DNA from: Stegostoma tigrinum
Lineage: Eukaryota
Assembly: GCF_030684315.1 (NCBI RefSeq)
Contig: NC_081393.1
Span: forward strand, 16,301,479 to 16,365,478
Direction: 5' to 3'
Length of the DNA: 64,000 nt
Below the pieces are notes generated by a model. That model was not told the origin of the DNA and did not search any database. It saw only the letters and a program-made list of their open reading frames with translations. Shown piece after piece: positions 1,391 to 63,429 of this stretch (positions are counted from its first letter, which is position 1; each line of letters begins with the position of its first letter). The position numbers were made by a program, and so were the translations under genes.

Positions 1391-1474
1391 ATGGATCTTC
1401 ACCTTCATTCTAAATTGATTTTATCTGTAGAATTGTGTCTGTATCCTTAACAGCCTATTGTTTGTTAACTGCAG

Positions 1475-1569
1475 GAATGCCAGGAGAACCGCTGCCTGTT
1501 GAAAGTGAAAAGGACATCTTTGATTACATTGACTGGCAATACCGAGAGCCACAAGAGCGAAGTGAGTGA
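1475..1569 (+). CDS. POLB: DNA polymerase beta, last coding exon ((G)[30 protein letters not shown])
   Basis: Acceptor ...ttaactgcAG at 1473-1474. Translation closely matches the human POLB C-terminus ([31 protein letters not shown]). TGA at 1567-1569. Upstream exons lie outside the window. Confidence 0.96.
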
Positions 1570-20970: not shown

Positions 20971-21479
20971 AATGTGGGATCAGTGAATATACCCTAACCA
21001 TTTCATTGACTGCTGGTGAATTTACCTCCATTCACTTTGCTGCAATGACACTGACTTCTACCCATCAGTCTGTGCTGTGTCATTTCAAAAGTAAATCTTG
21101 AGCACAATATTGTTAAAGCCATAAAGCCAACCAAAGAGAAGGTGACACTGGATAAAATAGACTGAGCTTTCTGATTTGGGATATGTTAATGCAAATGTGC
21201 AAATGCTAAATGGCTATGGTTTCCTCTAGTGTCAAAGTAATGTCTATCAGAAACAGTAGCCATTCAGTTACCCAGTGTGATCCGAAGAGTAAGATTTGTA
21301 TTTGCACCATGTCGTTTGGAATAATCCAGCTTCACCACTGACTGACTGACTCCTGGGATATGTGCAGTCATTTTGCTTTGGATTCCTTTCAGGCTATAAT
21401 GTGAAGTGAGCTTACTTCACATCAACTCTGTGAGAAAGCTGTTTGGTAGAATCTCATGTTGCTGCAGTTCAGTCCTTAC

Positions 21480-21630
21480 CATTTAAACAGTGGCTCCCAG
21501 AGCAGCACATTTCATCACGTTGGCACTGTCTCCTTAGCCCCCTGCAAGCAGAGCAGATGGGTTGGTCATGATGGGAAGTGAGGCAAAAGCTCCCAGGGCC
21601 ACAGTCAGGATCTGCCAAGCACCGAGACAC
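21480..21630 (-). CDS. DKK4: Dickkopf-4 exon 2 (CRD1: VSRCLADPDCGPGSFCLTSHHDQPICSACRGLRRQCQRDEMCCSGSHCLN)
   Basis: Not in the ORF track; read by hand. Acceptor gattcttcAG, donor GTAAGG; 151 nt, phase 0-1. Cys spacing and CRGLRR.CQRD.MCC match human DKK4. Confidence 0.95.
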
Positions 21631-44489: not shown

Positions 44490-44960
44490 GCGCCAGGTTA
44501 AGGAAGTCGGGGTTGGAGGGACGTGGGACGAGGTGGACGCGGCGTGAGCCGGAATGATGAGCCAGCGCTTTGCAAAGGCTTGCGGAGCGTGTCCTGGATC
44601 ATAGCCTCCGGCCGGAGGGGGGCAGTACAGGCGGGCGGGCTGTCTGCCTGGGACGCTTGCGCGGCGCCCAGCCTCAGCAGGCAGCCGCAGTGAGGCCCGT
44701 TCTCTCCTTCACGTTGCCCTCTCGCAGGCAGCGGTTCGCTCGGGTTTGATCGGCAGGAGGTATCGAGGCTGCAGGTAACGGGAGAACAGGGCCGCCCGTG
44801 GAGGCGCTGCTGCTGCTGGTGATGAGGAGAGAGATAGAGCAAGAGGGTGTACTTGGCCTTGGGGTCCGGCAGCCTGCGTGCGAGCCAAGGCCTTGCCCAA
44901 GGCCCCCACCCCGGGGCTGGGTGTGTCCCGCCGCCCGCTCCACACAGAGTATTGAGGGAG
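44490..44960 (+). promoter_or_regulatory. VDAC3: CpG island / VDAC3 promoter and probable non-coding exon 1 (donor GCAG|GTAACG at 44774/44775)
   Basis: Most GC/CpG-rich unique segment of the window; GC box GCGGGCGGGC 44631-44640; ETS-like GGAAGT 44502 and CCGGAA 44549; splice donor ~2.2 kb upstream of the ATG exon. Confidence 0.75.
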
Positions 44961-46969
44961 GGAGGGATTGACCTCCAAATTCGTGGGGTGGAGGAGTTCT
45001 CCACCTGCATCCTGCCCCCTTCAAATACCTTCCGCGCAATTGAAACCCCACCGCACCCCACATCACCTCTGCTTGCAATTTCCAAGAGAAGTTGGATGGA
45101 CAAAAAGGTGACCTTGTCAAAGTAGACGATTATAATGTGAATGCCTTTTTCTCTGTGCGGGGGCTAGGCTGAGCCGTCTGTACTCGCTGCTGAAGGACGC
45201 GCTTCGGCTTGTCCTTTGGACATTGACCCAAAGCTGCCCCCATGACGCCTTCTCTGGCTCAAAGTTAATCATGGGTGCCTGCCATGATTTATGAGAGCAC
45301 ACTGGGTACTTTCTAGGTACTGTCTAAGTAGACTGTTCAGAGATGTTGTTACTGTATGCTCCTGTGGAACGGGTGGGACTTGAACCCAGGCCCCCTGGCT
45401 CAGAGGTGTGGACAGTTTCTATGTAAAATGGCCAATACCTGCACCTAATCATGCTACTTGAGAACAGTTTTCCCTGCGTCACACATCTTGCAGTCCGTGA
45501 ACATCCTGAGTTAGGTGCAGAAAAATGCCACTTACACACCATCCAGTCAGAGTCCCAGGGCAAATACAGCCCAGGGAAACGGTCTCTCTTCACTGACAGC
45601 CATCAAACACTCCTAATACAATGAAGTAATGTCACACACTTGGCTACAGGTTGTTTCAGAGGCAAGTTCATCGGGATTCCATCCTTTGGCATTTCAGGGC
45701 AATATTTGCTAGTGTTGTGGAATATTTATGTTGTCGTACCATTACCAAACTGCTGCCCAATCTCATCTAACCTTGAACTCAGAGGTAGCAGACAGTGAAG
45801 TATCACTGTCTGTCCTCACTGGAATTGAACTGGTGGATACAGCCTATTGTCTCCCTCACTCTGCCACCAGATTACCTCCTTGACCTGCTCACCCTGGCTG
45901 TGCGACTACAGTGTGTCCTATAGACCTAGATGCATAAGAAACATTGCGGTGTCTGTGCGGCTTTAGGTTTTGTTCAAATGAACTTTTTAGAGACTGTAGC
46001 ACCAATCTTCTTGTTAAATCCTACTGCTAGAATACAGTACTTGGCTGAGTACTCATACAGACTTTGCAGTAAAAGCAATGCGTGCTGTCTGTAGTCTAGT
46101 TGAAGCTCAATCTAACAAAACCCTTAACAAATATAATCATCTCTTGCCAATTCATCAATATTGTATTTGGTGAGAGTTGTAAAGAAACATTGGGCAGACC
46201 AGGACACTGCTTAGAGATGGCGGAGAACTAGATCAGCGAGTTATTAGGAGCAAATTGTTTCGCCTGAATTTGAGAGTTTACTTGAACTTGTGAGAATCTG
46301 AACATTTTTCAGTGTGTATTGCTCTGGTTGGTCTCCTTTGAAATGTTAGAATTTGGCTCTTTACTGAGATGCCTTAAGATTTAATTGGGTCTTTGAATTT
46401 GTAGGTGCATTGCTGTGATATTTGCCCAGCACTGTTGGGGGGGTGGTGCGGTTGTATGTGTGTCAGATTACTCTACTGCAAGGTGGTGATCTGTCAATGA
46501 TACATTGTCACCCTTGAGGCTAATAGTGTTGTGCAACATTGGCACAGATCAGTGAGTGGTGTTGGAGTCGAGGAGGCAGCTTAACTGACCCAAAGAAGTG
46601 TATTACACAACAGTATTCTATTTGGTTAAGGTCTTTTAGCGCTGCAAGGGGAGGAATTTCATTTTTTGCTGCAAATTGTGCCATAAAGTTACAATGTCAC
46701 AGTGTGTTGGATCTTATTAAGATGCATTGGTGTCAGTGTACCAGACTTTCCGAGTCTGGCAGTTGAGAAAGATGTGTGACATATGTCACTTGAAGCACTG
46801 GTGTTTGCAAGTCATCGGGCAGCTGTCTGTTGATCTTTGTATTCTGAAATTTCACCATGACAAAAGATGAACAAAATGCTGGTTTTGTGTTGTGCTTCCT
46901 GCAGTAAGAATTGAAGTTGCAGTAATTTTGTGTTGGTGCCTAATCATTTGTCTCCTTTCCATAGGCAGA

Positions 46970-47036
46970 ATGTCTGTGCCACCGTCATATGCAGACTTGG
47001 GGAAGTCCAGTCGGGACCTCTTCACGAAAGGATATG
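46970..47036 (+). CDS. VDAC3: VDAC first coding exon ([22 protein letters not shown](G))
   Basis: Typical VDAC N-terminal helix; 67 coding nt; donor GTGAGC. VDAC3 paralog assigned from POLB-DKK4 synteny and the micro-exon. Confidence 0.92.
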
Positions 47037-50000
47037 GTGAGCAGCCTTTCTTCCTCTCTGAATTCTATAGCAACTCCTCTCGGAATCATGCGTTAGTTAG
47101 ATAAATTTGATGTTGTGAAATGATGGGTGTAGTCATGATATGAGAATCTGCCGGCTGATTTCATCTGAAAAAAAAATGTAATTTGCATTCTTGCAATATA
47201 TGAACTTGTCTCTGAAATCTCTTATAATAAAGGATGCTGACTCCTTGATAAGAATACCAAGCACCTAAACACAAATGAAGAATGGGGTAAAATACCCCTG
47301 TTGTATCCCAGGAATCGTTTCGGGTATACCTCAACTAAATGCTGAAGTAAATAAATTGGTACGTTTGTTGCCTGGAAACCTTTCTACGTCTGATCACCAG
47401 TGACAGTTACCCACTCAGCAATAGAAGCAGAGACCAATTGCGATCTGATATGGTCTGGAAAGGAATGCAGTGGGAATATCACTTGAGTGCCAGTGACTCC
47501 CGAAAGTGGCTGTGTATGTGTTCTGTACTGTTCACAGTGTTTGTTGGCTCTTGCACTTCAAATTGTTACTGATACTCAGATTTCTGAGTTTAGTGATCAG
47601 CTGCTCATGTTCCTTGGTTCTGAGACAGTGCAAGTGAAACCATGCAAAATAACATGTTGCTCTGCTCCCTCCATCGTAACCCAGAAAAAGGGTTCACAAA
47701 CTGCAGCCAGATTCATTCATAAGCTTGCTTTGTGATGAAACAGGAGTTGGCTGTTCAATCTCGTCGAGTTTGGTATGTTGATCAGTCCCTTGTTCCTTGC
47801 TCCAATGGCGATAATGCTGTTGCTTTCTGGGTAAATTTCTTGCTCCCTTTCAACACCTAAGGAGAACACACTCTCTGATTTGGTCTCAGCCTAGATCAAA
47901 TATTAAGATTTTTACCCCCCGCTTTGGATTCCCATTTGAGAGGGAAGAATTGTCTTCATGTCTCATGCTGATTTCTATTGTTATATTGTATTTCAACTGG
48001 ATAATCCACTAAATTTGTCTAACATCTATTGTGAATCCACCTTGAACTCATGACTTCGCCTCACTGTGGAGGCTGAAATGATTCATTGAGACATACATCG
48101 CAGAAACAGACCTCAGTCCAACTTGTCCATGCTGACCTGATATCCAAAATAAATCTAGTCCCGTTTGCCAGCATTTGGCCCGCATCCCTCTAAACCCTCC
48201 TAATCCATGTACCTATTCAGGTGCCTTTCAAATGTTGTAATTGTACCAGCCTCCACCATTTCCTCTCACAGCTCTTTCAGAAGGCCGAAGGGCTTGTTCC
48301 TGTGCTTTGTGCTTTGTTCTTTGTATTCCATACGTGCGCCACCCTCTGTGTGAAAAAATTGCCCCTTAAGTTCCTTTTACTTCTTTGCCCTCTCTCACCT
48401 TAAACCTATGCCCTCTAGTTTTGGACTCCCACAGCCAGGAGAAAGAGCTTGGCCATTCACCCTATCCCTGCCCTCTGTGAATTTATAACGTCTACAAGAA
48501 GACCCTTCAGCCTCTGATGCTCCTGGAAAATAGCCCCAGTATATTCAGCCTCTCCCTTTAGCTCAAACCCTCCAATCCTGACTATAGCCAGGAGATTACA
48601 AAAGTGGCCTAATCAATGTCCTGTCCAGCTGCAATATGACCTCCCTACTCTATACTCAAAGCGTTGGCCAATAAGGGCAAGTGTACCAAATGCCATCTTC
48701 ATTATCCTATCTACTTGCAACCCCACTTCAAGGAACTGTGAACCTGCACTACAAAGTTTCATTGTTCAGCAGTAGTTCCCAGGACCACAAGTCCAGCCCT
48801 GATTTGCCCTTCCAAATTGCAGCACCTCACGTTTATCTAAATTAAACTTTATCTGCCACCCCTCGGTTCATTGGCCCATCTGATCACGATCCTGTCGTAC
48901 TGTGAGGTAACCTTCTTTGCTGCCCACCACTCCTCCAATTTTAGTGTCATCTTCAAAGTTACTAACCATACCTCGTACATTCACATCCAGATCATTTATA
49001 TAAATGGCGAAAAACAGCGGACCCAGAACTGATTCTTGTGGCACACTGCTGGTCACAGGTCTTCAGTCTGAAAAGCAATCCTCCACCACCACCCCGCTGC
49101 CTTCCATGTTTGAGCCTGTGCTGTATCTAAATACCTAGTTCTCCCCTTGTTCTGTGTGATCTAACCTTGCTAATCAGCCTACCATGAGGAACCTTGTCAA
49201 ACGCCTTACTGAAGTGCGTGTAGATTACAGCCACCGTTCTGCCCTCGTCAATCCTCTTTGTTAATTCTTCAGAAAACTCAATTTAGTGAGACACATTTTC
49301 CCACACAGAGCCACATTGAATGTCTCTAATCAGTCCTTGCCTTTCCAAATGCATGTAAACCTTATTAGAACATAGAACAGTACAGCACGGCACAGTACAG
49401 GCCCTTCGGCAGTATGATGTTGTGTCGAACATTTACCGTAATCCTAAAGTCTATCTAACCTCCACCCCTACCTTATACTATCATCCATATGCCTATCTAA
49501 TAGCCGCTTCAATGCCCGTAATGAGGCCGACTCCATTACCCTCTCCGGCAATGCATTCCACATCCCGACCAATCTCTGAGTAAAGAAACTACCTCTGACG
49601 TCTCCCCTGTATCTACCCCCACTCACTTTACAACAATGCCCCCTTGTAATAGCTACTTCCATCCTAGCAAAAAGTCTCTGGCTGTCCACTGTATCTATAC
49701 CTCTGATCGTTTTGTACATCTCTGTTAAGTCACCTCTCATCCGTCGTCATTCTAACGAGAAAAGCCCGAGCTGTCTCAACCTTTCCTCAGAAGACCTTCC
49801 CTCCATTCCAGGCAACATCCCGGTAAATCTCCTCTGCACCTTTTCCAACGCTTCCGCATCTTCCCTGTAGTGAGGCGACCAGAACTGGACACAACACTCC
49901 GGATGTGGCTGAACCAGGCTTTTGTATAGCTAGAGCATAACTTCACGGCTCTTGAATCAGTCCCTCTATTAACGAAAGCTAACAGACCATACGCCTTAAC

Positions 50001-50495
50001 AACTCTATTCACATGAGTGGCAGCTTTCAGGGAACTGTGGACCCCAAGATCCCTCTGCTCCTCCACACTGTCAAGAATGTTTCTGTTAACCTTGTATTCT
50101 GCTTTCAAGTCTGTTCTTCCAAAATGAATCACCTCACACTTTTCAGGGTGAAACTCCATCTGCCACTTCTCAGCCCAGGTCTGCATCCTGTCAATGTCCC
50201 TTTGTAACCTAGAACAGCCCTCTGCACTGTCCACAACTTGACCTACCTTCGTATTGCCCGCAAACTTATTAATCCACCCTTCCGCTCCTTCCTCCAAATC
50301 ATTTACCAAAATCACAAGTAGAAGAGGACCCAGGACACATCCTTGTGGTACATGACTTGTAAACGAGCACCATGTTGAATATTTTCCATCAACTACCACC
50401 CTTTGTCCTCTAAGGGTCAGCCAATTCTGAATCCAATCTGCCACATTTCCCCCATCCCATGCCTCCTTACCTTCTGCATGACCCTACCATGGGGA

Positions 50496-50899
50496 GCATA
50501 GAACACTACAGCGCAGTACAGGCCCTTCGGCCCTCGATGTTACGCCAACCTGTGAAACCAATCTGAAGCCCATCTAACCTACACTATTCCATTATCATCC
50601 ATATGCTTATCCAGTGATCATTTAAATGCCCTTAAAGTTGACAAGTCTACTACTGTTGTAGGCAGGGCATTCCACACCCTTAGAGTAAAGAAACTACCTC
50701 TGACTTCTGTCCTATACCTATCACCCCTCAATTTAAAGCTATTTCCCCTCGTGATAGCCTTCACCATCCGAGGAAAGAGGCTCTCGCTGTCCATACTATC
50801 TAATCCTCTGATCATCTTGTATGTCGCTATTAAGTCACCTCTTAACCTTCTTCTCTCTAATGAAAACAGCCTCAAGTCCCTCAGCCTTTCCTCATAAGA
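50496..50899 (-). mobile_element. CR1 3'-end fragment nested inside the younger CR1
   Basis: New tail catagaacac at 50497; host ccatgggga|accttatcaaacgcc rejoins across it. Confidence 0.85.
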
Positions 50900-51934
50900 G
50901 AACCTTATCAAACGCCTTACTTAAATCCATGTATACTGCTCTATCTTCATCCACATGTTTGGTCACCTCTTCAAAGAATTCAGTACGGTTTGTGAGATGT
51001 GATCTACCGCTCACAAATCCATGCTGACGATCACAAATCAAACTGTGCCTTTCCAACTGTCTTTCAGAGCCTTTTCCAATAATTTGTCCATCACTGACGT
51101 TAGACTAACTGGCTTGTAATTTCCAGGGTTATCCCTAATCCCTTTTTTGAACAAGGGAATGACGTTTGCCTATCTTCAGTCTTCCAGCACTGTACCCGTG
51201 CACAGTGAGGATGAAAAGACCACCGCCAAAGGCCCTGCGATCTCTTCCCTCACTTCCCGTAGAATCCTTGCATAAATCCCATCAGGCCGGGGGGACTTAT
51301 CTATCTTAAAGTTCCTCAAAATTCCTAGCACATCTTCCTTAACAATATTGACCTCCTCTAGCTGATCAGCTTGTTTCGCACAGTCCTCTTCTACAACTTG
51401 GTCCCTCTCAGTTGTGAATACCAAAGAAAAGTACTCATTCAGGACCTCTCCTATCTCTTCATGCTCCGTGCACAAATTCCCTTTACAATCCTTGAGCTAC
51501 CCTTTCTCCGGTCATTCTCTTATTCCTCACGTATGTGTAAAAAGGCTTGGAGTTTACCTTGATCCTATCTGCCAAGGTTTTCTCATGCCCCCTTACAGCT
51601 CTGCTAAGCTGTTTCTTCAGTCCTTCCTGGATAACTTGTATCCCTCTAGAGCTTTTTCCGTTCCTTGTTTCTTAAACCTTACATAAGCATCCTTCTTCCT
51701 CTTAACCAGACGTTGGACCTCCCTTGAGAACCAAAGCTCCCTCACTCGACTGCATCTTCCCTGCCTGCTTTGGACAAACATGTTGAGCACACGGACTATG
51801 TATTCCTTCAACAATCTCCACGTTTCAGTGGTGCCGTTCCCGGACAGCGTCTGTTCCCAATTTATGTTACCCAGTTCTTGCCTAACAGAATTGTAATTAC
51901 CCTTGCCCCAATTATAAACCTTACCTTGCTCTTT

Positions 51935-52040
51935 GTAGCTCCTTTTCTGAAGAAGGGTTTAGGCCCGAAACGTCAGCTTTCCTACTCCTCTGATGCTGCT
52001 TGACCTGCTGTGTTCATCCAGCTCTACACCTTGTTATCTC
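51935..52040 (+). mobile_element. Penelope 3'-end fragment with intact hammerhead core (51947-51974), sense to VDAC3
   Basis: CTGAAGA-agggtttaggccc-GAAA-CGTC followed by one family arm; inserted in a CR1. Confidence 0.85.
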
Positions 52041-52782
52041 TTATTGTATGTACCTATTCTTTTCCATGACTATTGTAAAAGTAACGGAGTTATGATCGCT
52101 ACTGCCAAAATGCTCTCCTACCAACCGGTCTGACACTTGGTCCAACACAATTAATTTGTTCATTGCCAAGCACCAAATCCAAAGAGGCCCCTCCTGTGTC
52201 GGTCTATCTACAGGGACATACCATGTCCCTCAGAATTCCCTCCAACAACTTGCTGACTACTGATGTCAGGCTCACTGGTGTTTTGGTCCCTGGCTTTTCC
52301 TAAACCACCTATTTTAAATAGTGGCAGCACGGTAGCCAAACTCCAGTCTTCTGGCAGCTCGCCTGTGGCTATTGATGATATAAATATATCAGCAAGGGAC
52401 CCAGCAATCTCTTCCCTAGCTTCTCACAGAGGTTTAGGGTACACCTCATCAGGTCGTGGGGATTTATCTGCCTTTGTGTTTGAGGATGATCAGCACCAAT
52501 GTAAACTCTACAGTATAGACATTTTTTTAAGGTGTTGCTATTTATTTCTCCATGTTTTGTACCTTTCATATCGTTGTCAACAGAAAACACTGATGCAAAA
52601 TACTCAGTAACTCCCCCATCGCCTGCGGTTCCTGATGTAGCGGCCTTGCTGATCTCTCAGGGGCCTTTTTCTCTCCCTAGTTACCTTTTTGCCCTTGTTT
52701 GTAGAACGTCTTTGGGTTCTCCTTTACCCTGATTGCCAAAGCTGTCTCGTGCCCTTTTTGCCCTCCTGATTTTCCTTTTAAG

Positions 52783-53119
52783 AGGGCTGGCACGGTGGCT
52801 CAGTGGCTAGCATTGCTGCCACACAGCACCAGGGACCTGGGTTCGATTCCGCCCTCGGGCAGCTGTCTGCATGGAGTTTGCAGATTCTCCCCGTGTCTGC
52901 GAGGCTTTCCTCTGGGTGCTCCGGTTTCCTCCTATAGTCCAAAAATGTGCAGTCTGGGTGGATTGGCCTTGCTGTAAACCAAAAATTACCCATGTGATTC
53001 AGGGATACGTAGATTAGTTGGGTTGTAGGGAGATGGGTCTGGGTGGGATTCTCTGAGGGTCATTGTAGACTTGTTGAGCCGAAGGGCTTGTTTTGACACT
53101 GTGGAGATTCTGTGGATTG
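52783..53119 (+). mobile_element. Full-length tRNA-derived V-SINE (HE1-like)
   Basis: A box tggctcagtgg, B box ggttcgattcc, V-domain ggagtttgca..ttctccccgtgtctgc...ctccggtttcctcc. Confidence 0.88.
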
Positions 53120-53751
53120 TACTCCTACTGCCCATATACTTGTCAAGGGATTCACTCGATCTCTGCAGTCTATACCAGACACGTGCTTCCTTCTGATTCT
53201 TAACCCAAAACCTAAATTTCTCTCGTCATCCAGCATTCCCAATACCTACCAGCCTTGCCTTTCATCCTAACAGGAGAATCTCCTATCACAATCGATCACT
53301 TAGAAATTGGCGTACCCCTCGTTACATCAGAGCCAATATTGGTACCAGAAAGCTGACTGTCAGCGCTACATTCCACTGAGAGTTCATTAACCCCTACATT
53401 TTCCATAACAGCATTTGACTTTAAGATGTAGATAGCTGCAGACTTCTGCACTACCTGCCTCCCTGTCCAACCTTTGCTGGAACTCACCCATCTACTTGAC
53501 TGCCTTTGGTTTATCACCCTCCGTTCAAGTTCCATCCGGCACACCCCCTATCTCCTGTAAACTCCTCGTTGCCTCTAATTGCTGCTTCACCCGATCCATG
53601 CGATCTGATAGGATTCACAACCAAATACATTTCCTTCAGACATAATTGTCAGCAACATGGAAACTTCCTTAACTCCCACATCCAACAGGAAGTACACATC
53701 ACCATACTGAAGACCATCTTTGCAACTTGACTGTCTCTCGATCCAGAAAGT

Positions 53752-53970
53752 AGGGGCAGCACGCTGGCTCAGTTGTTAGCATTGTTGCCTCACAGTCCAA
53801 AGATATTCAGGCTAGGTGGATTGGCCGTGCTAAATTGCCCCTGGTGTTCAGGGATTTGGAGATTAGGTGGGTTATCGGGAGATGGCTCTGTGTGGGATGC
53901 TGTCATGGTTGGTGTGGACGTGTTGGACCGAAGGCCAGTTTGCACACTGTCAGGATTCTATGATTCTATG
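53752..53970 (+). mobile_element. Internally deleted HE1-like SINE
   Basis: Same head and 3' part as the 52783 copy; tail gattctatgattctatg. Confidence 0.8.
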
Positions 53971-55159
53971 AAAATAGCAGTCTTACTGCTCCAGGCTAAC
54001 TTAGTCCCTACGTTTTTGTATTTCTAAAGTTTAATCGAGAGAGACTGAATAAAAACATGTAATCAGAAAAGAACCCACTTTATTCACGATTGTAGATTTA
54101 CAAACAAAAAACAGTCAAGTTACACTTTAAAACTAGCCACTTAAGTGCTCCCCTGCTGTGAGCTCCCCCACATAGGTTTCTCTGAGGTCAGCTGTAAATT
54201 TCGCTGTTTGTTCATTTTTTTCTTAGAACAAAGTCTGATGTCCAGGGATACTTGAAACCAAACCCCAAAGCAGCTGTACATGTTACTGCTGGGTCAAACA
54301 GCAGTGTAGGTTTCTTTCTCTATTTGAATCACTTCCCGTATCGTCACTGCCTTTGTCTCCCGTCCTTTTTAAAGTGCTGTTGTTTCCATCTTTGTTTAGG
54401 AGGTTTGGGTAAAAAAAATGCAACACTTATAATACAGTAATTACTGCTCCTAGAATTCGAGGAAATCAGCTCCAACACTAAAATACCTCAAGTAATGAGC
54501 AGTTCTTACTGCCACAATTTTTCCCGCCTGCCATCTTGGATTACCCAGAATCCATCCATTTGTTAAATTTCAGCAAGTCTAATGTATTGAAAAGAGTGCC
54601 ATCATGGACTGTAGTATAACAAATGAGAACCAAACAGCACTTAGTAATCCCCTGACCTTGATGAATCATTCACCTTGTTGACTTTTTAAATAACTGGCTT
54701 GTGAGGACCTAGTGACCCTTTTGTTGAGGGCTGTGGGTGGGGATCAACAAGAACTGTCCTCCATATGAATTTTCTCCCATCTGGCATGTCTTATGTTGAG
54801 ACGTTTACAGTATTGTGCATCTAGCATTAGACTACATTGGCCATACCTTTAACCGCATTGTAACCTGCCTATTTGCAGGCTTCTGCAGTCGGGTTGGGTA
54901 AGAAAAGAGCGTGAGTGAATGGAAAAGGTGGGACCCTGCGGCAGTCTAGGGGGTTTGGTGTATGTTCCGGTTGCCAGAATATGAGATCCCCTTTTTCTCC
55001 GTGTTATTGAAAACCTCTCGTCAGCCACGTTTGACAATAGCTCCTCTCAAAAACAAAGCATGTATTTTCTATCCAGGTCTCTCAATTTTGGAAATTTTAG
55101 CTGCATTGTGTTGTTTGTGCCTTTACCTCAGTAATGCTCAACAATCCATCAGCTGGGAC

Positions 55160-55577
55160 TGGAGGATCTCAGTTCTAGGGAGAGGCTGGATAGGCCGGGA
55201 CTCTTTTCACTGGGCCGTATGAGGTAGAGGGGTGACCTCTTTACCATAGATATAAAAGCATAGATAAGGTGAATGGCAGGTGTCTTTACCCTAGGATGGG
55301 GTTGCTCAAAACCATCGGCATATTTTCACGGTGAGAAGAGACAGATTTAAAATGGACCTGAGGAACCTCTCTCACGGTGGGGTTTGTTTTGGAACAGGCA
55401 GGTGCAGTCACAACATTTTAAAGGCATTTGGACGGGTACGTGAATAGGAAATGTTTGGAGGGATACGGCCCAATTGTAGGCAAATGGGAGTGTTTTAGTT
55501 TGGGAAACCTGGTTGGCACAGGCGAGTTGGATTGAAGGATCTGTTCCGTGCTGTGTGACTGTGACTGTGACTATGAC
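55160..55577 (+). mobile_element. CR1 3' fragment ending in (gtgact)n
   Basis: Homologous to other CR1 3' ends; tandem tail visible. Confidence 0.75.
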
Positions 55578-56819
55578 AGATTCTGTCTCGGTATTGGCTT
55601 TAGCAGAGGCCGACTCCCTTATATCAGCCTAAACCCTTGCAAGTTCTTGCTGAAATTACTCGGTCCCTGTTGCTGGCGCCTTTTCCGAAGAGCTGCTGCA
55701 GACACAGTGGGCTGAATGGCGACTTGTCACCGATTGACAATGGCACAACATTGCATCCAATTTACGATATTTAAACTCACCTTTTGTCAGAGGCAGCATT
55801 TTAACAAATAGTTCCATTTAATTTCACAAATGGCAATACCTATTCTGTCTGCTTTGCTTCAGCAGCGCCAACAAAGAAGAGAAACCGTTTGTGACTTGGG
55901 ACCCCGAGTCCATTTTGTTGGATCAATCAGGAAGACAGTCACTAGCTCTCGGTATCTGGGGAAATACATTGATCTTGCTCTTCTTTATTTGAAGCCCCTA
56001 ACTGGCATCCTCAGTTCAGTTATTGCCAGCCAGTCTTCACGATGTCACCTGTGCTCACGATATGAGCAGGGAGATCAAACACCATGCTCCTGTCTGTTTT
56101 GCATTCGAAAGCCCTTTCAGCTAATGACGTAACTCCATTTCCTTCCTGACTTTGGAAGAAAGTGGGGCGATGACTGCTTCTGCATGGTTTGTTGTTCTCT
56201 GTCCTCCTCTGTTTCTGTGCCGGTGCAACTGTTGTGTAAGCCGACATGTGACTTTTGACCTGATTGTTCATATTGAATACAGGCAAAATGATTAATTTGC
56301 ATAAAATTACCGTGCCTTTATATACAACAGGAGTGGTCACTGAGTGCTTTGCACTTGCAATGAACATGCAGGACAGTTGAAGTTCATAACTCCTTCCTGC
56401 TAGTGCCAGTAGTGCTGATGCAATCATACCTGATATAGTAACTTGGCTACTTGCAAAGCGATCCCAAGAGTGACATTTGAATTTCCAGTCCTTCTGAGTT
56501 ACTGTGCAGTTCATTCAGACAAGGAATTCTGTCTCCTCCAGCTTCAGTGTACTCTGCAGTGATTCAAAACTGCCATGGATTTAGAATCGAGTGGAACCCT
56601 ACAAGTGCTTTCGCCCGGAGTTGACTGAGAGCAGAACTTCGAGGAATCCTTGTTTGGCTTTGAACAGTAGCTGTCTGCATAGTCGTTTTAGCATAAGCTG
56701 TATGCACTGTGTCTTAGTGCCTGGGTTCGAATTGAATGTAACATATGGATTCTTCAAACTGTGAAATGTACTGGGCAGTAATGTTTCAGGCCGAGAAAGA
56801 GAAAAAAAGAAGCTCGGTA

Positions 56820-57612
56820 GGTTCAACCTGGATAAATGCAAAGTGATGCATTTTGGAAGGTCGAACTTAAATGCTGAATATAGGATAAAGGCAGGATTCT
56901 CAGCAGTGTGGAGGAACAGCGGGATCTTGGTGTTCAAATGCATAGCTCCCTCAAAGTTGCCACCCAGGTGGATAAGGTTGTTAAGAAAGCATATGGTGTT
57001 TTGGCTTTCAGTAACAGGGGGATCGAGTTTAAGAGCCACGAGATTATGCTGCAGCTCTACAAAACCCTGGTGAGACCACACTTGGAATATTGTGTCCAGT
57101 TCTGGTGGCCCTATTATAGGAAAGATGTGGAGGCTTTGGAGAGGGTGCAAAGGAGGTTTACCAGGATGCTGCCTGGACTGGAGGGCTTGTCTTACGAGGA
57201 GAGGTTGACTGAGCTCGGACTTTTCTCTCTGGAGAGAAGGAGGAAGAGAGGTGACCTGATCGAGGTGTACAAGGTAATGAGAGGCATGGATAGGGTTGAT
57301 AGCCAGAGACTTTTCCCCACGGCAGGATTGAGTGCCACGAGGGGTCATAGTTTTAAGGTGTTAGGAGGAAGGTATAGAGGAGACGTCAGAGGGAGGTTCT
57401 TCACCCAGAGAGTTGTGAGCGCATGGAATACTTTACCAGTGGTAGTCGTGGAAGCGGAGCCATTAGTGACATTTAAGCGACTGCTGGACATGCACATGGA
57501 CAGCAGTGAATTGAGGGGAATGCAGGTTAGGTTATTTTATTTTTGGATTAGGATTATTCCACGGCACAACATCGTGGGCCGAAGGGCCTGTACTCTGCTG
57601 TACTTTTCTGTG
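56820..57612 (+). mobile_element. Young 5'-truncated CR1 LINE (ORF2 C-terminus)
   Basis: ORF 56908-57615 with LYKTLVRPHLEYCVQFW.PYYRKD, RGDLIEVYK, FFTQRVV..WN. Confidence 0.93.
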
Positions 57613-58026
57613 TAACACTGGGTTAACTACTGTTCGGGATGGGGTTCTCATTTGAGACGGCAACAGGTTGAGGGGATGCCATGAGAATGTCAGAACATTC
57701 AACATTATTCAAGGATTAAGTGAACTTTTTGGTCATATACTGCATTGGCACAAACACAATGAATCACCTGAGACTCAACACCTTCCTATTCACTACAAAT
57801 CCTAGCCACTTGTGACCACCTCTCGACTGTCTGTGTGGGTCAGTAAAGGATTGGTTTTGTATTTCAAGCATTGTTGGACTTTCTTGGAAAGTGCGAGACT
57901 ATAGGTGAGTTTTAATCCCCAGAGTTTCCTGCGTTTTGCATTTTGTATTACTTGTGGTCTATTAGTAGTGACGTATCGATCTCATGCTGATTTGCTCCGT
58001 CACACACTCTTATTTTCGTTTCTTAG

Positions 58027-58076
58027 GGTTTGGTTTGGTGAAGCTGGAACTCAAGACCAAATCATCGAGTGGAGTG
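58027..58076 (+). CDS. VDAC3: VDAC second coding exon ((G)FGLVKLELKTKSSSGV)
   Basis: Acceptor tttcttAG, 50 nt, donor GTGAGT; size and sequence typical of vertebrate VDAC genes. Confidence 0.93.
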
Positions 58077-59128
58077 GTGAGTTTTCAAAATTACAGGGAG
58101 GCAGATATGGTGAGAGCGGCAGAAACACACCAGATTGGAATGGACAACAATGTTTTTATCAGATCGTGAGAAACAAGACAAAACATGCCCGCACCCTATT
58201 AATGTTTCATGTTTTGCAGACAGGGCCCTTCTACAGGCTGGTAGTGTTGCTGAAGGTCGTAATTTCTTTTGATGATCAGAGAAGAGTATTGCAAAAGATC
58301 AGTGTGGGTGGCTAAGATCAAAAGAAATAGGCACAGGTATAAGCCAGCTTTGGCCTTTTTGAGTCAGCTCTGATATTGAGTTAGATGCTGGCTGACTAGA
58401 CTGTGGCCTTAACCACACTTTCCCAACTGTCCCATGTATATTCAAAGTCCAAGTCTCCACTGTCTTCTGTTGTACCACTGCTATTGTATTCCATTGTTTT
58501 TGCAATAAATGCCCGACTTCCATTTGCCGTGCTCCGAGGACACTACATGTGCTGTAGGTGAGGCTGAGACAGAATAATGTTAAGTTGCATGTAGGTACGG
58601 AGATGTCAGAGACGGTTCAGTTCTGTTGACTGCTTTAATATTTGTGCGTTACTTGTATTGGCACAATCTGGATTAATTTGCTTTAATCATTGAAACAACA
58701 ACAGTATGTTCAGACTGGAACATTCAGTCATTCTGTGGATACCTTTCCAAAAAATAATGCTTATTCCTGCTTTGGTTATCCTTTAAATTATCCAAACATT
58801 CTGAGTTCTGTGTCGTGTTAAAATCTCCTTCAGACATGAGAAGCATGCTTTGACAAATGGGATGGCTGTACTCTGATGAATAAACAGACCGGTCGAATGA
58901 AAGCCACTGACCATTAGTGTGTTGATACTTGCAAAGCCCTTACTTTGTTTAAAAGTTGAATACTGTACTGACAGCCCTCAGTTCTGGTTTCATGTCTGTT
59001 GTACTGCATCTTGTCTGTCGCTACATGTGTAGAGACCTGACCTTGCCAGCTGGAATCTAACCTACTTACTTCCTGTTTGCTTTCTCTGTCCTGCTGCTTG
59101 ACCCCCTTGTGCTGGATCGCTCCGTCAG

Positions 59129-59131
59129 ATG
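59129..59131 (+). CDS. VDAC3: Alternative 3-nt micro-exon ATG (single Met between V39 and E40)
   Basis: ...pyrimidine tract...tccgtcAG|ATG|GTAAGA in the same phase-0 intron where mammalian VDAC3 has a known single-codon ATG exon. Confidence 0.85.
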
Positions 59132-60803
59132 GTAAGATAACTTGACTAAATCCAACTGCTGACTCTGATGATTCCGCTTCTCTGTCCTCCTGATTGAACA
59201 AGCACAATGTCTACGCCACTTGTGTTTGCAGTGCTTTTCTTTCCAGTTTTTTTGCCACTGGGAATTGGTAGGATAGTTCTGGGTTGATGGGTAACAGGAC
59301 CAAATCTTCACATTGTTAGTAGAGATTTGATCGTCTTCTATTCATTATGAGTTTAAAACTCCCATTGAAAACTCGCACTTGCCTTTCGGAGTAGTGTATG
59401 AAAACTGAATGGGATCTGTCTAGTTGAACTGCAGTTTGCCTCATTCGAGACTGAATGCTCTATACCAGAGTACAAATTAGTTGGTTTCCCCTCATTTACC
59501 TCTGGATAATTTCCTGCTGGGCTGTTCCCTTTCATTGTAGCTGCGAGAAATCTGTCATTGTGGTTCTTGTATTTGAGGCCACCATGTGAGCTGTTTGTTT
59601 AATCTTGCTGCTCTGTATTGTACTCATTTACTAGAACATCGCTGGCGGTATTGCGACTGTATACACCCTGCTGCTGTTGCCTTGTTCTGCATTCTGGCTT
59701 TTTGCTGTTACTGCTGACTTTGAGTAACTTGGGTAACCAATCAAAACTCTCGGCTTAATTCAGGACTTTGGCATCAGTGTTAGAGTATCAATTAATGTGT
59801 ACTGTATAGAAGTAAAGACCTGTCTCCCTCTGCAGCGTACAATTCCTGTTATAATCCCAAAGATTTAAACTTAATTTTCTACAGTGTTTGGTAGTTTGTG
59901 CAGAATCTGTCACCTTCTTTTGAGAGTTGCAAGGTATCGTACTTAGAGATGAGTGTCTCTGCTGCATGTTATCAAAACTGCGATCTTAGTGTGGAAGATC
60001 AGTAAAGAATAGGGTCTCTCTGAGCAGTGTTTTCTGGATAAGCTTCCTTTAGACCAAACATGGGAAACTGAAAGAAAAGGTAATCGTAGTCTCTCAAATC
60101 TCTTCATTGTGTTGAGCACCTCAATTACAACAGAATTATTCGTGAAGAACAGCACTCGGGTGTATCACTGAAGGATGTTGTCGAGCATCAAGCTATATCT
60201 GCAGCCAGTGTAGGATGCTGTCGTGGAGATCATCCAATGGTTTTGTACTGTGGTTACTTAGTACAATTTTTCATTTGTTGCTCTGTTTCCTTTAGCATTA
60301 GTAAGTGGAGAGAACTTTGCAGGCAGCCCAGGCTTGATTCCTGGTACATTGATCTGTTAAGCAATCGATTGGGGAAGGAGATGCCTCCACGTCTTGTGCT
60401 TTGATCTCCTGAGGGATCCCTCAGAATGGGTGAAGGGAGCTAGAAAGTCCAGTAACAGTAAAATCTTTCATAAGTGTTGTTGGCGGCAGAGAGAGAGAGC
60501 AGAAGGAGCCTTTGATTGGAAACAACCCACACCATTGTCTGACTTGCAAATCTGTATTACATCACCTCTGAAGAATATTGACTTCATATGATTTTTGCTG
60601 ACTCCTGTCATATCGTTGAAATCGGGTTGAGGTATAGAATAATGTATAGTTCAATAATTTGTGATGTAACGACCGAAATATGGACGAGTATAGACAGGCT
60701 GTTTCGATATTCGGTATGTTTTATCTTTGTATTGATGCCACCAGCAAAGGGAAGAGAAGTTTTGAAAGATTGATTGTGCTTCTTCACACGCTTACTTTCG
60801 CAG

Positions 60804-60956
60804 GAGTTTACCACCTCCGGCTCTTCAAATACTGACACGGGCAAAGCTACGGGCAGCCTGGAAACCAAGTACAAGCTGAAAGAGTATGGACTCACCTTCA
60901 CTGAAAAATGGAATACTGATAATGTTTTGGCCAGCGAGATCACCATCGAAGATCAG
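60804..60956 (+). CDS. VDAC3: VDAC third coding exon ([51 protein letters not shown])
   Basis: Acceptor tttcgcAG, 153 nt, donor GTAGGT; conserved KWNTDN motif. Confidence 0.95.
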
Positions 60957-62876
60957 GTAGGTGTTGCATGTATATTGCAGCCTGGTACTGGGGAGGGACC
61001 ACGAGAGTATCTTCATAGAGTTGTCATAATGTCAACGCAGCCTGTTGGGTGGAAATGATTTTCTTACAGTGCCTGTAGGTTCAAGCTGAGGTTCAAGAGA
61101 ATAATGGACAGTCTTTTTAAATCTTGGTGATATGGAACAGAGCAGTTCTGCATAGGATATGTTCCGTTATATATGCTAACTTGAAAATTGCCTGTTGACA
61201 TTTTTACGACATAGATGAATCTGTCTACTCTTTGTTTTGTCGTTCAGTTCCGATACTGTTGTGGGGGTCCACTTCGCTCACTGTCTAATTCCAGTTTAAA
61301 AGAACAGACTCAGTTGCAGCAATGGCGTTGATTGAAAACTCCCTCCGCTGTGTGAAGGCATTTGTTCGCGCTAGAGAACACTCTAACAACAATTGTTGAC
61401 ACTTTAAATAACAATCATTTTTTGGCCCAGTAACTGCTGACTGGATTTTAGTAATTATCCACTCTCGCTGCTCATAATAACCTGCTTTTATTGTTGTGTT
61501 GCTGTTTTACTTTGGAACTTACAGGCAGTGTCTGATATTAATATTGATATTAAGTTTCAAGATCCTTCACAGGAATGTTAGCTTGCTTTGATGAATGGCT
61601 ATTTTGTACTGTACTGTAATGTGTTCTGACTCGCGAACAAATTGACTCATCCATTGGTAACCCAGGGCCTGCCTGCAGTTTGAGATGCTACTCTCATTTA
61701 TGGGACTGTCATCTGCATGCCAAGACAGGAAATAAGTTTCCTTTTCTAAAGTGAATTAGGTGCTGTCCCTTGGTGGCTACGACTGTTCCAATCAAAACCT
61801 ACTTGACTCTTTGAGGCTTAAAATCTGGGTAGAAATCCCAAGCCCTACAGAGATTTTGAGTGGAGAAATCAACACTGTTACAATTCTCTTCTACGTATGA
61901 CTGAGACAGAAAAAGTAGGATGGATGTCTAATGTATCTCACCCAAGGCAATGCTTAATTGTAACATGGTTTAGGGTAAGAGAGAGTGTTACTGTTATCTG
62001 TCTCATGGGCAGAAGTTGGATTCTGTACCTAAGCTGTGCATCACTCCTGGAGAGCTGGATGACATTCACTGTTGCTGCAGAACAATGCTGTTGCTTTTGC
62101 AGTGTGACTTCTACTGCTCAATGATCAGAACTCTTTGCCTGGCACCACAACAACTTCAGTGTTAAGACAGCCTGGAACCAAACTTGTGTTCATTGTCTGA
62201 TGCTTACTGATGGACGATGCTGTAAAACTACAGAAGAGCTGGGTGTACAAGCTGTGCCGTGTTGCTTTTTTATGAGGTCTGGCGGGAACCTGGATCTGGT
62301 ATTGCTGTAATGTTAATGTTGGGAAGGTATGAGAAAGTTTTAATATTCAGTTGGGCCTGGGATTTTAAGCAGTGAAGAACGGACTTCCAAGAATTGTTTA
62401 CGACCTCATTACAGCCAGTGAATAACTTTGAAGTTTACTTGATGTTGTATTTAAAAGTATAGGTTGAAGGGTAACACCCTAAGAAATGTTCTGCTCCCTT
62501 TGAAGTGCCATGTGATCAAGTGTGACCATCTGGGCAGACACAGTGGTCCTTGGTTTAATATCCCATCTGAAAGACAGCACCACCAGTGGTGTTGCATTCT
62601 CTCAGTATTGCACTTGAATAACAGTCTAGGTAAGTTGCCTAGGCCTTTGAATTGAGGCTTGTCCCCACAAGTTCAGATTGTGCTGAGTGTGCGATTTATT
62701 GAATGAGCACTGATCAATAAATTGGGGAATCTACCTAAATCAATGGCTTAGATGTTTTGAAAAGTTATCACAACACAAACGTTTCACCTCACCAAATCCG
62801 TGTAACAATTGTTCGGTAGTGTTAAACCAAACATATAAAACAAAATTAACTTCCCTTTTGTTTCTTTTTCTTGCAG

Positions 62877-62929
62877 CTTGCTAAAGGACTGAAGCTGACT
62901 TTTGACACGACATTCGTACCAAATACAGG
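62877..62929 (+). CDS. VDAC3: VDAC fourth coding exon (LAKGLKLTFDTTFVPNT(G)); gene continues beyond the window
   Basis: Long polypyrimidine acceptor ttgcAG, 53 nt, donor GTAAGG; GLKLT.D..F.PNTG motif. Confidence 0.94.
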
Positions 62930-63429
62930 GTAAGGTTTTCATTGTTACTTTTGGTTCATCCTTGGCGGGGATGGGTTTGAACAGACTGCTTAATGAATTC
63001 CACCTGTAATGTGTGCAAGCTGGCTAATCTCATTGAGTAATATTGTATCGTCTGCAAGGGGCACCAAGCTTGTGTATGTTTTCTTAAAGTGGCACACATG
63101 AGACATGGAGTGGAGCTTATAACAGGGTGAGAATGACAATAATGATATTGCATGTGAGAGCCTGACAAAGTGTGGCCAGTGACAAGTTGTGGATGACGCT
63201 TTTAGTACTTAGTGCCTTTTAATATAATGAGACACTCAAGGCAATAGACACGAGCGTTTTTAGGCAAAGTTTGACACTGAGCCAAATGACAGGTTATTAG
63301 GCCCAGTGACCATAGCTGGGTTAAGTGGGTAGGGTTTAAGGAGTGTCTTCAGTGAGGAAAGTGACCCACCAAGAGGGATTTCCATAACTTGAGGCTCAGG
63401 CAATTGAAGGCACATCTGATGCTGACGGA

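Follow-up and report, generated by a model that had tools for sequence, protein, structure and literature searches.

We propose that the triplet ATG at positions 59129-59131 of the stretch of Stegostoma tigrinum DNA analysed here (64,000 nucleotides in all; ‘the window’) is very probably an alternatively spliced 3-nt exon of VDAC3, orthologous to the exon described in mammals and zebrafish, which would add a single methionine (Met40) to the channel protein, mainly in neurons. That the ATG exon is included in this species we infer with high confidence; given such inclusion, a neural bias and control of the shark exon by SRRM3/4 would be probable. The exon is an orthologue of one already known, and its presence in cartilaginous fishes is already on display in public protein records.

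The gene and its two upstream neighbours are arranged in the window as follows:

1444..1560, plus strand: frame that includes POLB's final coding exon (synteny)
21475..21624, minus strand: exon encoding the Dickkopf_N domain of the upstream neighbour, DKK4 (6 of 6 matches named dickkopf-related protein 4 or 4-like)
46970..47036, plus strand: first coding exon of VDAC3, residues 1-22
58027..58076, plus strand: upstream constitutive exon of VDAC3 (exon 3), residues 23-39, with donor GTGAGT
60804..60956, plus strand: downstream constitutive exon of VDAC3 (exon 4), residues 40-90 of the form that skips the ATG (‘skip form’)
62877..62929, plus strand: next coding exon of VDAC3, residues 91-108

Outside the window, L004 holds four further VDAC3 coding exons, and together with those listed they match, exon by exon, the protein record P0122, a skip form of 283 amino acids that is named VDAC3 of Stegostoma tigrinum by its source. 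A protein tree of 34 rows, none of them a mammalian VDAC3, places P0122 within the VDAC3 clade (support 100/99). The gene order in the window, POLB(+), DKK4(-), VDAC3(+), is presumably also that of the human VDAC3 neighbourhood. Three VDAC loci are found in the genome, the other two of which, C15 and C49, match a VDAC1 and a VDAC2 record, respectively. Judged by its tree clade and by its POLB and DKK4 neighbours, the gene at this locus is VDAC3, as the initial annotation had assigned it; a VDAC1 identity, hinted at by the N-terminal residues, is ruled out by both tree and synteny. We note that SLC20A2, which we take to be a direct neighbour of human VDAC3, does not find its like here: SLC20 is not adjacent to shark VDAC3, and the nearest PHO4/SLC20 match on the contig is ~6 Mb off. 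The sole SLC20/PHO4 gene found on the contig is at G000:C52:10255291-10266447, with the other copy on C3.

The intron that holds the ATG runs from 58077 to 60803 (2,727 nt) and is in phase 0; exon 3 ends on the codon for V39 and exon 4 opens on that for E40, such that the placement of the candidate between these two residues, as first claimed, is right. Its putative signals are:

59057..59061, plus strand: predicted branch point CTAAC (motif match only)
59062..59109, plus strand: pyrimidine tract (C/T content 79%), at some distance from the AG
59110..59112, plus strand: TGC nearest the AG, 19 nt 5' of the exon, candidate SRRM3/4 enhancer (motif definition from bioRxiv 10.1101/2024.09.17.613571)
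59127..59128, plus strand: 3' splice site AG (CAG), with a 79-nt AG-free zone upstream (sequence)
59129..59131, plus strand: proposed 3-nt micro-exon ATG, which would encode Met40 (sequence, and GV-M-EF isoform records of other cartilaginous fishes)
59132..59137, plus strand: 5' splice site GTAAGA (ATG/GTAAGA), near the U1 consensus (sequence)

Direct reading of the locus gives CAG/ATG/GTAAGA, and the original description of the AG/ATG/GTAAGA string, the CTAAC, the pyrimidine tract and the TGC motifs proved accurate, with coordinates that are exact on re-reading the sequence. The predicted branch-point A, at 59060, lies 68 nt ahead of the 3' splice site; TCTCT sits inside the pyrimidine tract at 59083-59087; TGC motifs are found upstream of the ATG at 59078, 59092, 59095 and 59110; and a scan of the upstream sequence found no AG between 59048 and 59127. 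This is the sole AG-ATG-GT in the intron. As judged by motif inspection against the published definition, rather than by splice-strength scores, the layout is of the SRRM3/4 type: a strong donor, a distant branch point and pyrimidine tract, with UCUC and UGC between. An alternative donor or acceptor is ruled out as the source of a methionine, since a shifted donor at this locus would add Val (the next codon being GTG) and a shifted acceptor Gln (the previous codon being CAG); insertion of Met therefore needs a separate ATG exon.

A second YAG-NNN-GTRAG string, CAG/ATC/GTGAGA, is present in the same intron at 58160-58171 (ATC at 58163-58165), 86 nt past the exon 3 donor. We regard this candidate as likely to be a chance occurrence, with 48% pyrimidine in 25 nt and an Ile insert in 0 of 191 VDAC records with a readable junction.

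Further evidence comes from other species. Records of five cartilaginous fishes have Met between V39 and E40:

Carcharodon carcharias, XP_041066116.1: GV-M-EF, Met at the V39/E40 junction
Scyliorhinus canicula, XP_038641128.1: GV-M-EF, Met at the V39/E40 junction
Chiloscyllium plagiosum, XP_043537521.1: GV-M-EF, Met at the V39/E40 junction
Amblyraja radiata, XP_032869573.1: GV-M-EF, Met at the V39/E40 junction
Callorhinchus milii (a chimaera), UniRef record V9L211: GV-M-EF, Met at the V39/E40 junction

These Met forms are database gene models, known here as protein records, and in each of the three shark/skate pairs tested a 283-aa twin differs solely by Met40. Teleost proteins of the VDAC3 clade also carry Met at this junction. 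The insertion is alike and the protein orthologous; however, these chondrichthyan isoforms belong to species other than Stegostoma tigrinum, whose own matching record, P0122, lacks the Met, and, of the 28 members of its cluster, the 15 listed include no +Met twin for the locus. The Met-inserted records at the exact junction in other cartilaginous fishes support reading the ATG as a micro-exon, and its proposed origin before the split between cartilaginous and bony fishes holds, since teleosts as well as sharks, a skate and a chimaera have Met records, and since the zebrafish and human exons are published as orthologues. The further expectation, that gene predictors would miss such an exon, seems borne out only at this locus, where P0122 is the skip form; four elasmobranch RefSeq models and the UniRef record of a chimaera already include the Met.

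Across the 242 VDAC records, a redundant set picked by similarity, the junction was readable in 191 and unreadable in 51. An insertion was present in 38 of 122 readable VDAC3-type junctions (Met in 14, Leu in 22, Gln in one and an insert of 14 residues in one, with none in the remaining 84) versus 0 of 58 in records of VDAC1/2 type; partial or other VDAC records gave 0 of 11. At the level of DNA, YAG-NNN-GTRAG is absent from the C15 (VDAC1) and C49 (VDAC2) introns, and the 7.1-kb C15 intron holds two bare AG-ATG-GT strings. Taken together, the intron scan and the protein records confine the micro-exon to VDAC3 among the paralogues.

Two sets of records call for separate comment. P0123, a 260-aa carpet-shark VDAC3 model, has an N-terminus consistent with exon 2 in another frame joined straight to exon 4, with exon 3 skipped; on our reading, the M-E-F that it contains fits this skipping and is ruled out as evidence for the micro-exon. 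The teleost records P0070, P0111 and P0174-P0176 are named VDAC2 or VDAC2-like, have VDAC3 features and look misnamed; several carry the Met, and P0111 and P0174 fall in the VDAC3 clade of the protein tree.

How readily might such a site arise by chance? The VDAC3 intron holds 14 bare AG-NNN-GT strings, which are thus common, and the stricter YAG-NNN-GTRAG, of which the intron holds 2, was present in 382 of 2000 dinucleotide shuffles of that intron. YAG-ATG-GTRAG appeared in 7 of 2000 such shuffles, and the full architecture (an AG-free zone of >=40 nt, 65% pyrimidine and a branch motif) in 6 of 2000; over 528 kb of strand length taken from the three VDAC loci there are 33 YAG-NNN-GTRAG sites, 4 with ATG, and the full architecture was found once, at 59129. 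The cut-offs were picked after the site was seen, so that all of these chance figures err in its favour; as a test of the micro-exon, the protein records from other species are stronger. The 161 nt from 59040 to 59200 matched one place in the genome, its own, in a search that skips common words.

Contigs of sequencing runs X1, X2, X3 and X6 were compared with 46800-63100. In X1 and X2, which derive from a relative (guessed to be RNA, of unspecified tissue), the V39-E40 skip junction 58076-60804 and the junction 60956-62877 are both visible among the rows listed; these rows hold the skip form only, with no inclusion row, and most are filled by the repeat-rich intron 2, such that the lack of an inclusion row among them says nothing either way. 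Of 6 runs in 2 studies, none is on record as RNA. The DNA runs X3 and X6, whose sequence is almost the same as that of the window, may be its source and were hence excluded from support. A contig of the relative over 58977-59205 has 6 differences in 229 nt (2.6%; their positions not itemised), versus 267 in 4015 (6.7%) for ten pieces from elsewhere in the introns (p=0.012 by a post hoc Fisher test), a count that omits X1 records 1 and 2 (intron 2), the first piece of record 7, record 3 (which overlaps the exon 3 flank and is equally low, at 6/245) and record 5 (which spans the exon and differs at 71 letters, with 17 more in gaps, across ~1 kb). A literature search whose coverage of subscription journals is thin found no paper on a shark VDAC micro-exon; the shark exon may be listed in VastDB, or in the supplements of the bioRxiv, 2014 or 2019 micro-exon papers. 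It is, at its 3 nt, the minimum of the SRRM3/4 (eMIC) micro-exon class, sharing with it the strong donor, the set-back branch point and pyrimidine tract, UCUC plus UGC, and a frame-preserving length; for the shark exon, dependence on SRRM3/4 is a prediction only.

Mammalian VDAC3 is reported (Sampson et al. 1998, PMID 9804816) to contain a single-ATG exon. Its existence at this junction, which the initial annotation had noted, agrees with several reviews and papers (PMC7831034 and PMC3424414, along with PMC3106191 and PMC8374620; PMC5179545 yielded nothing further on it), and the mammalian and shark exons have in common the gene, the intron (between exons 3 and 4), the length, the codon and a one-Met insertion near residues 39-40. 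The zebrafish vdac3 exon DreEX0084235 is likewise 3 nt long; according to Lopez-Blanch et al. (eLife 2025, PMC12626424), its PSI reaches 88.9 in neural tissue, against 9.5 for muscle, 0 for liver and 26 for one heart sample, with a dPSI of -41 on loss of srrm3/4, and vdac3 is among 18 zebrafish microexon deletions, a set that is viable with mild or no phenotype. The zebrafish exon thus has inclusion data, srrm3/4-dependence data and a deletion line, whereas that of the shark is known from sequence. The same source lists HsaEX0070291 as the human orthologue and scores it NO_REG, with a neural dPSI of 1.6 and a dPSI of 5.6 on overexpression of the SRRM domain. The human exon, unlike what we expect for the shark, is therefore not neural-enriched, and neural control by SRRM3/4 is not universal. 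UGC is present in just 74-79% of exons with the SRRM3/4 architecture and is not strictly required (bioRxiv 10.1101/2024.09.17.613571); being neither universal nor strictly needed, the TGC motif is weak evidence for SRRM3/4.

Synthesising these findings, we suggest a model for how the exon might be used. The default of the spliceosome would be to join V39 to E40, as seen in a relative. A distance of ~20-70 nt separates the AG of the ATG exon from its branch point and pyrimidine tract, a spacing that would leave the exon weak on its own; SRRM3/4 acting on the UGC motifs, along with the strong donor, would then promote its inclusion, as the architecture and the zebrafish data lead us to infer. 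The frame would be preserved, and the 283-aa channel would become one of 284 aa. AlphaFold2 models of a catshark pair, P0126 and P0124 (mean pLDDT 88.4 and 87.6), both have 19 strands, with beta1 at residues 26-34 in each and beta2 at 39-48 without the Met and 40-49 with it; Met40 is thus predicted to open strand beta2 and to lengthen the beta1-beta2 turn from 4 to 5 residues, with the 19-strand barrel kept. In human VDAC3 models this turn is on the intermembrane-space side, and Cys36 is in a loop predicted to face that space (PMC8784847). This shark's VDAC3 has Ser, not the Cys of mammals, at position 36, and the redox-cysteine coupling of mammalian VDAC3 is unlikely here because of it. Among 11 PDB sequences matched at E < 1e-40, none is a solved structure named VDAC3. 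The effect of the extra residue, as far as the models can indicate, is likely to be a slight tuning of partner binding or gating rather than a new protein; its function is unestablished even in mammals, according to PMC7831034.

This model has three rivals. The exon might be real and yet be controlled in the shark mainly by other factors, such as muscle or heart programmes, rather than by neural SRRM3/4; we see this as possible, if on the unlikely side. The human orthologue, which lacks neural enrichment and shows little response to the SRRM domain, would be in keeping with it, as would the zebrafish heart value and the YGCY clusters on both sides of the shark ATG exon, which we take to be of MBNL type. 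However, the layout of the shark exon fits the published SRRM3/4 architecture, inclusion in zebrafish is sharply neural and srrm3/4-dependent, and both TGCATG and ACTAAY are absent within 270 nt downstream of the exon. We think it very improbable that these signals are vestigial, or resemble those of an exon by chance, with the ATG exon unspliced in this species: all of its splice signals are intact, the triplet agrees with isoform records of a close relative of 98% protein identity, the exon flank has diverged less than the rest of the intronic pieces compared in the relative's contigs, and the full architecture occurs that single time in 528 kb. What can be said for this rival is that the skip junction stands alone among the rows listed for X1/X2, that a +Met record is missing among the cluster members listed, and that the ATC string at 58163 shows that YAG-NNN-GTRAG does arise in this intron.

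We give still less credence to the idea that the ATG is an internal start codon, giving an N-terminally truncated VDAC3. Once spliced, its context would be good for initiation (G at -3, G at +4), and one review, PMC8374620, has the truncated protein being produced. Decker and Craigen 2000 (PMID 10833333), in contrast, states in its title that cells in vivo make no such truncated isoform, and a full-length +Met isoform is described in PMC3106191 and PMC3424414. Truncation would, in addition, lose the N-terminal helix and beta1 of the AlphaFold2 models, and the occurrence of Leu at the same junction in 22 bird and lizard records also speaks against a start codon.

That a spliced, one-codon exon is the preferred reading leaves these Leu forms to be considered. 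Leu in place of Met at the micro-exon junction is carried by VDAC3 records of birds and lizards, and three records of Pelecanus crispus (P0078, P0198 and P0196) comprise a Leu, a Met and a skip form with no other difference among them. On the protein sequences, the Leu may come from a second 3-nt exon in that intron, a codon change or annotation noise; no literature on a Leu form at this junction was found by title or abstract start. We speculate, very tentatively, that the shark exon is the ancestral state of a one-codon switch that dates back to the origin of jawed vertebrates or further, driven by neural SRRM3/4 in fishes and re-wired in mammals, which in birds and lizards is joined or replaced by a second, Leu-encoding 3-nt exon, and that selection keeps an extra hydrophobic residue in the beta1-beta2 turn to tune a neuron-specific interaction of VDAC3; as a whole, we would call this scenario doubtful.

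What is at stake is a single codon, the smallest exon able to keep the frame, retained in VDAC3 from chimaeras, sharks and skates to bony fishes and mammals, together with one isoform that is probably missing from the annotation of Stegostoma tigrinum. Its deep age was previously implied by the zebrafish-human orthology and by database isoforms from further shark species. As an outgroup, sharks are well placed to show which was ancestral, the neural SRRM3/4 control seen in zebrafish or the non-neural-enriched pattern seen in human; for tests of the function of the extra residue, the existing zebrafish line already serves, and the shark exon eases none further.

Finally, we note some features of the upstream part of the gene. 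The stretch 44560-44780 is GC-rich and ends in a donor-like GCAG/GTAACG at ~44775, and is probably a non-coding first exon of VDAC3 together with its promoter. Intron 2 (47037-58026) is mostly repeats; within it, 56820-57600 is, by its very high depth in the DNA runs, a high-copy repeat, and resembles the reverse transcriptase end of a LINE of CR1/L2 type.
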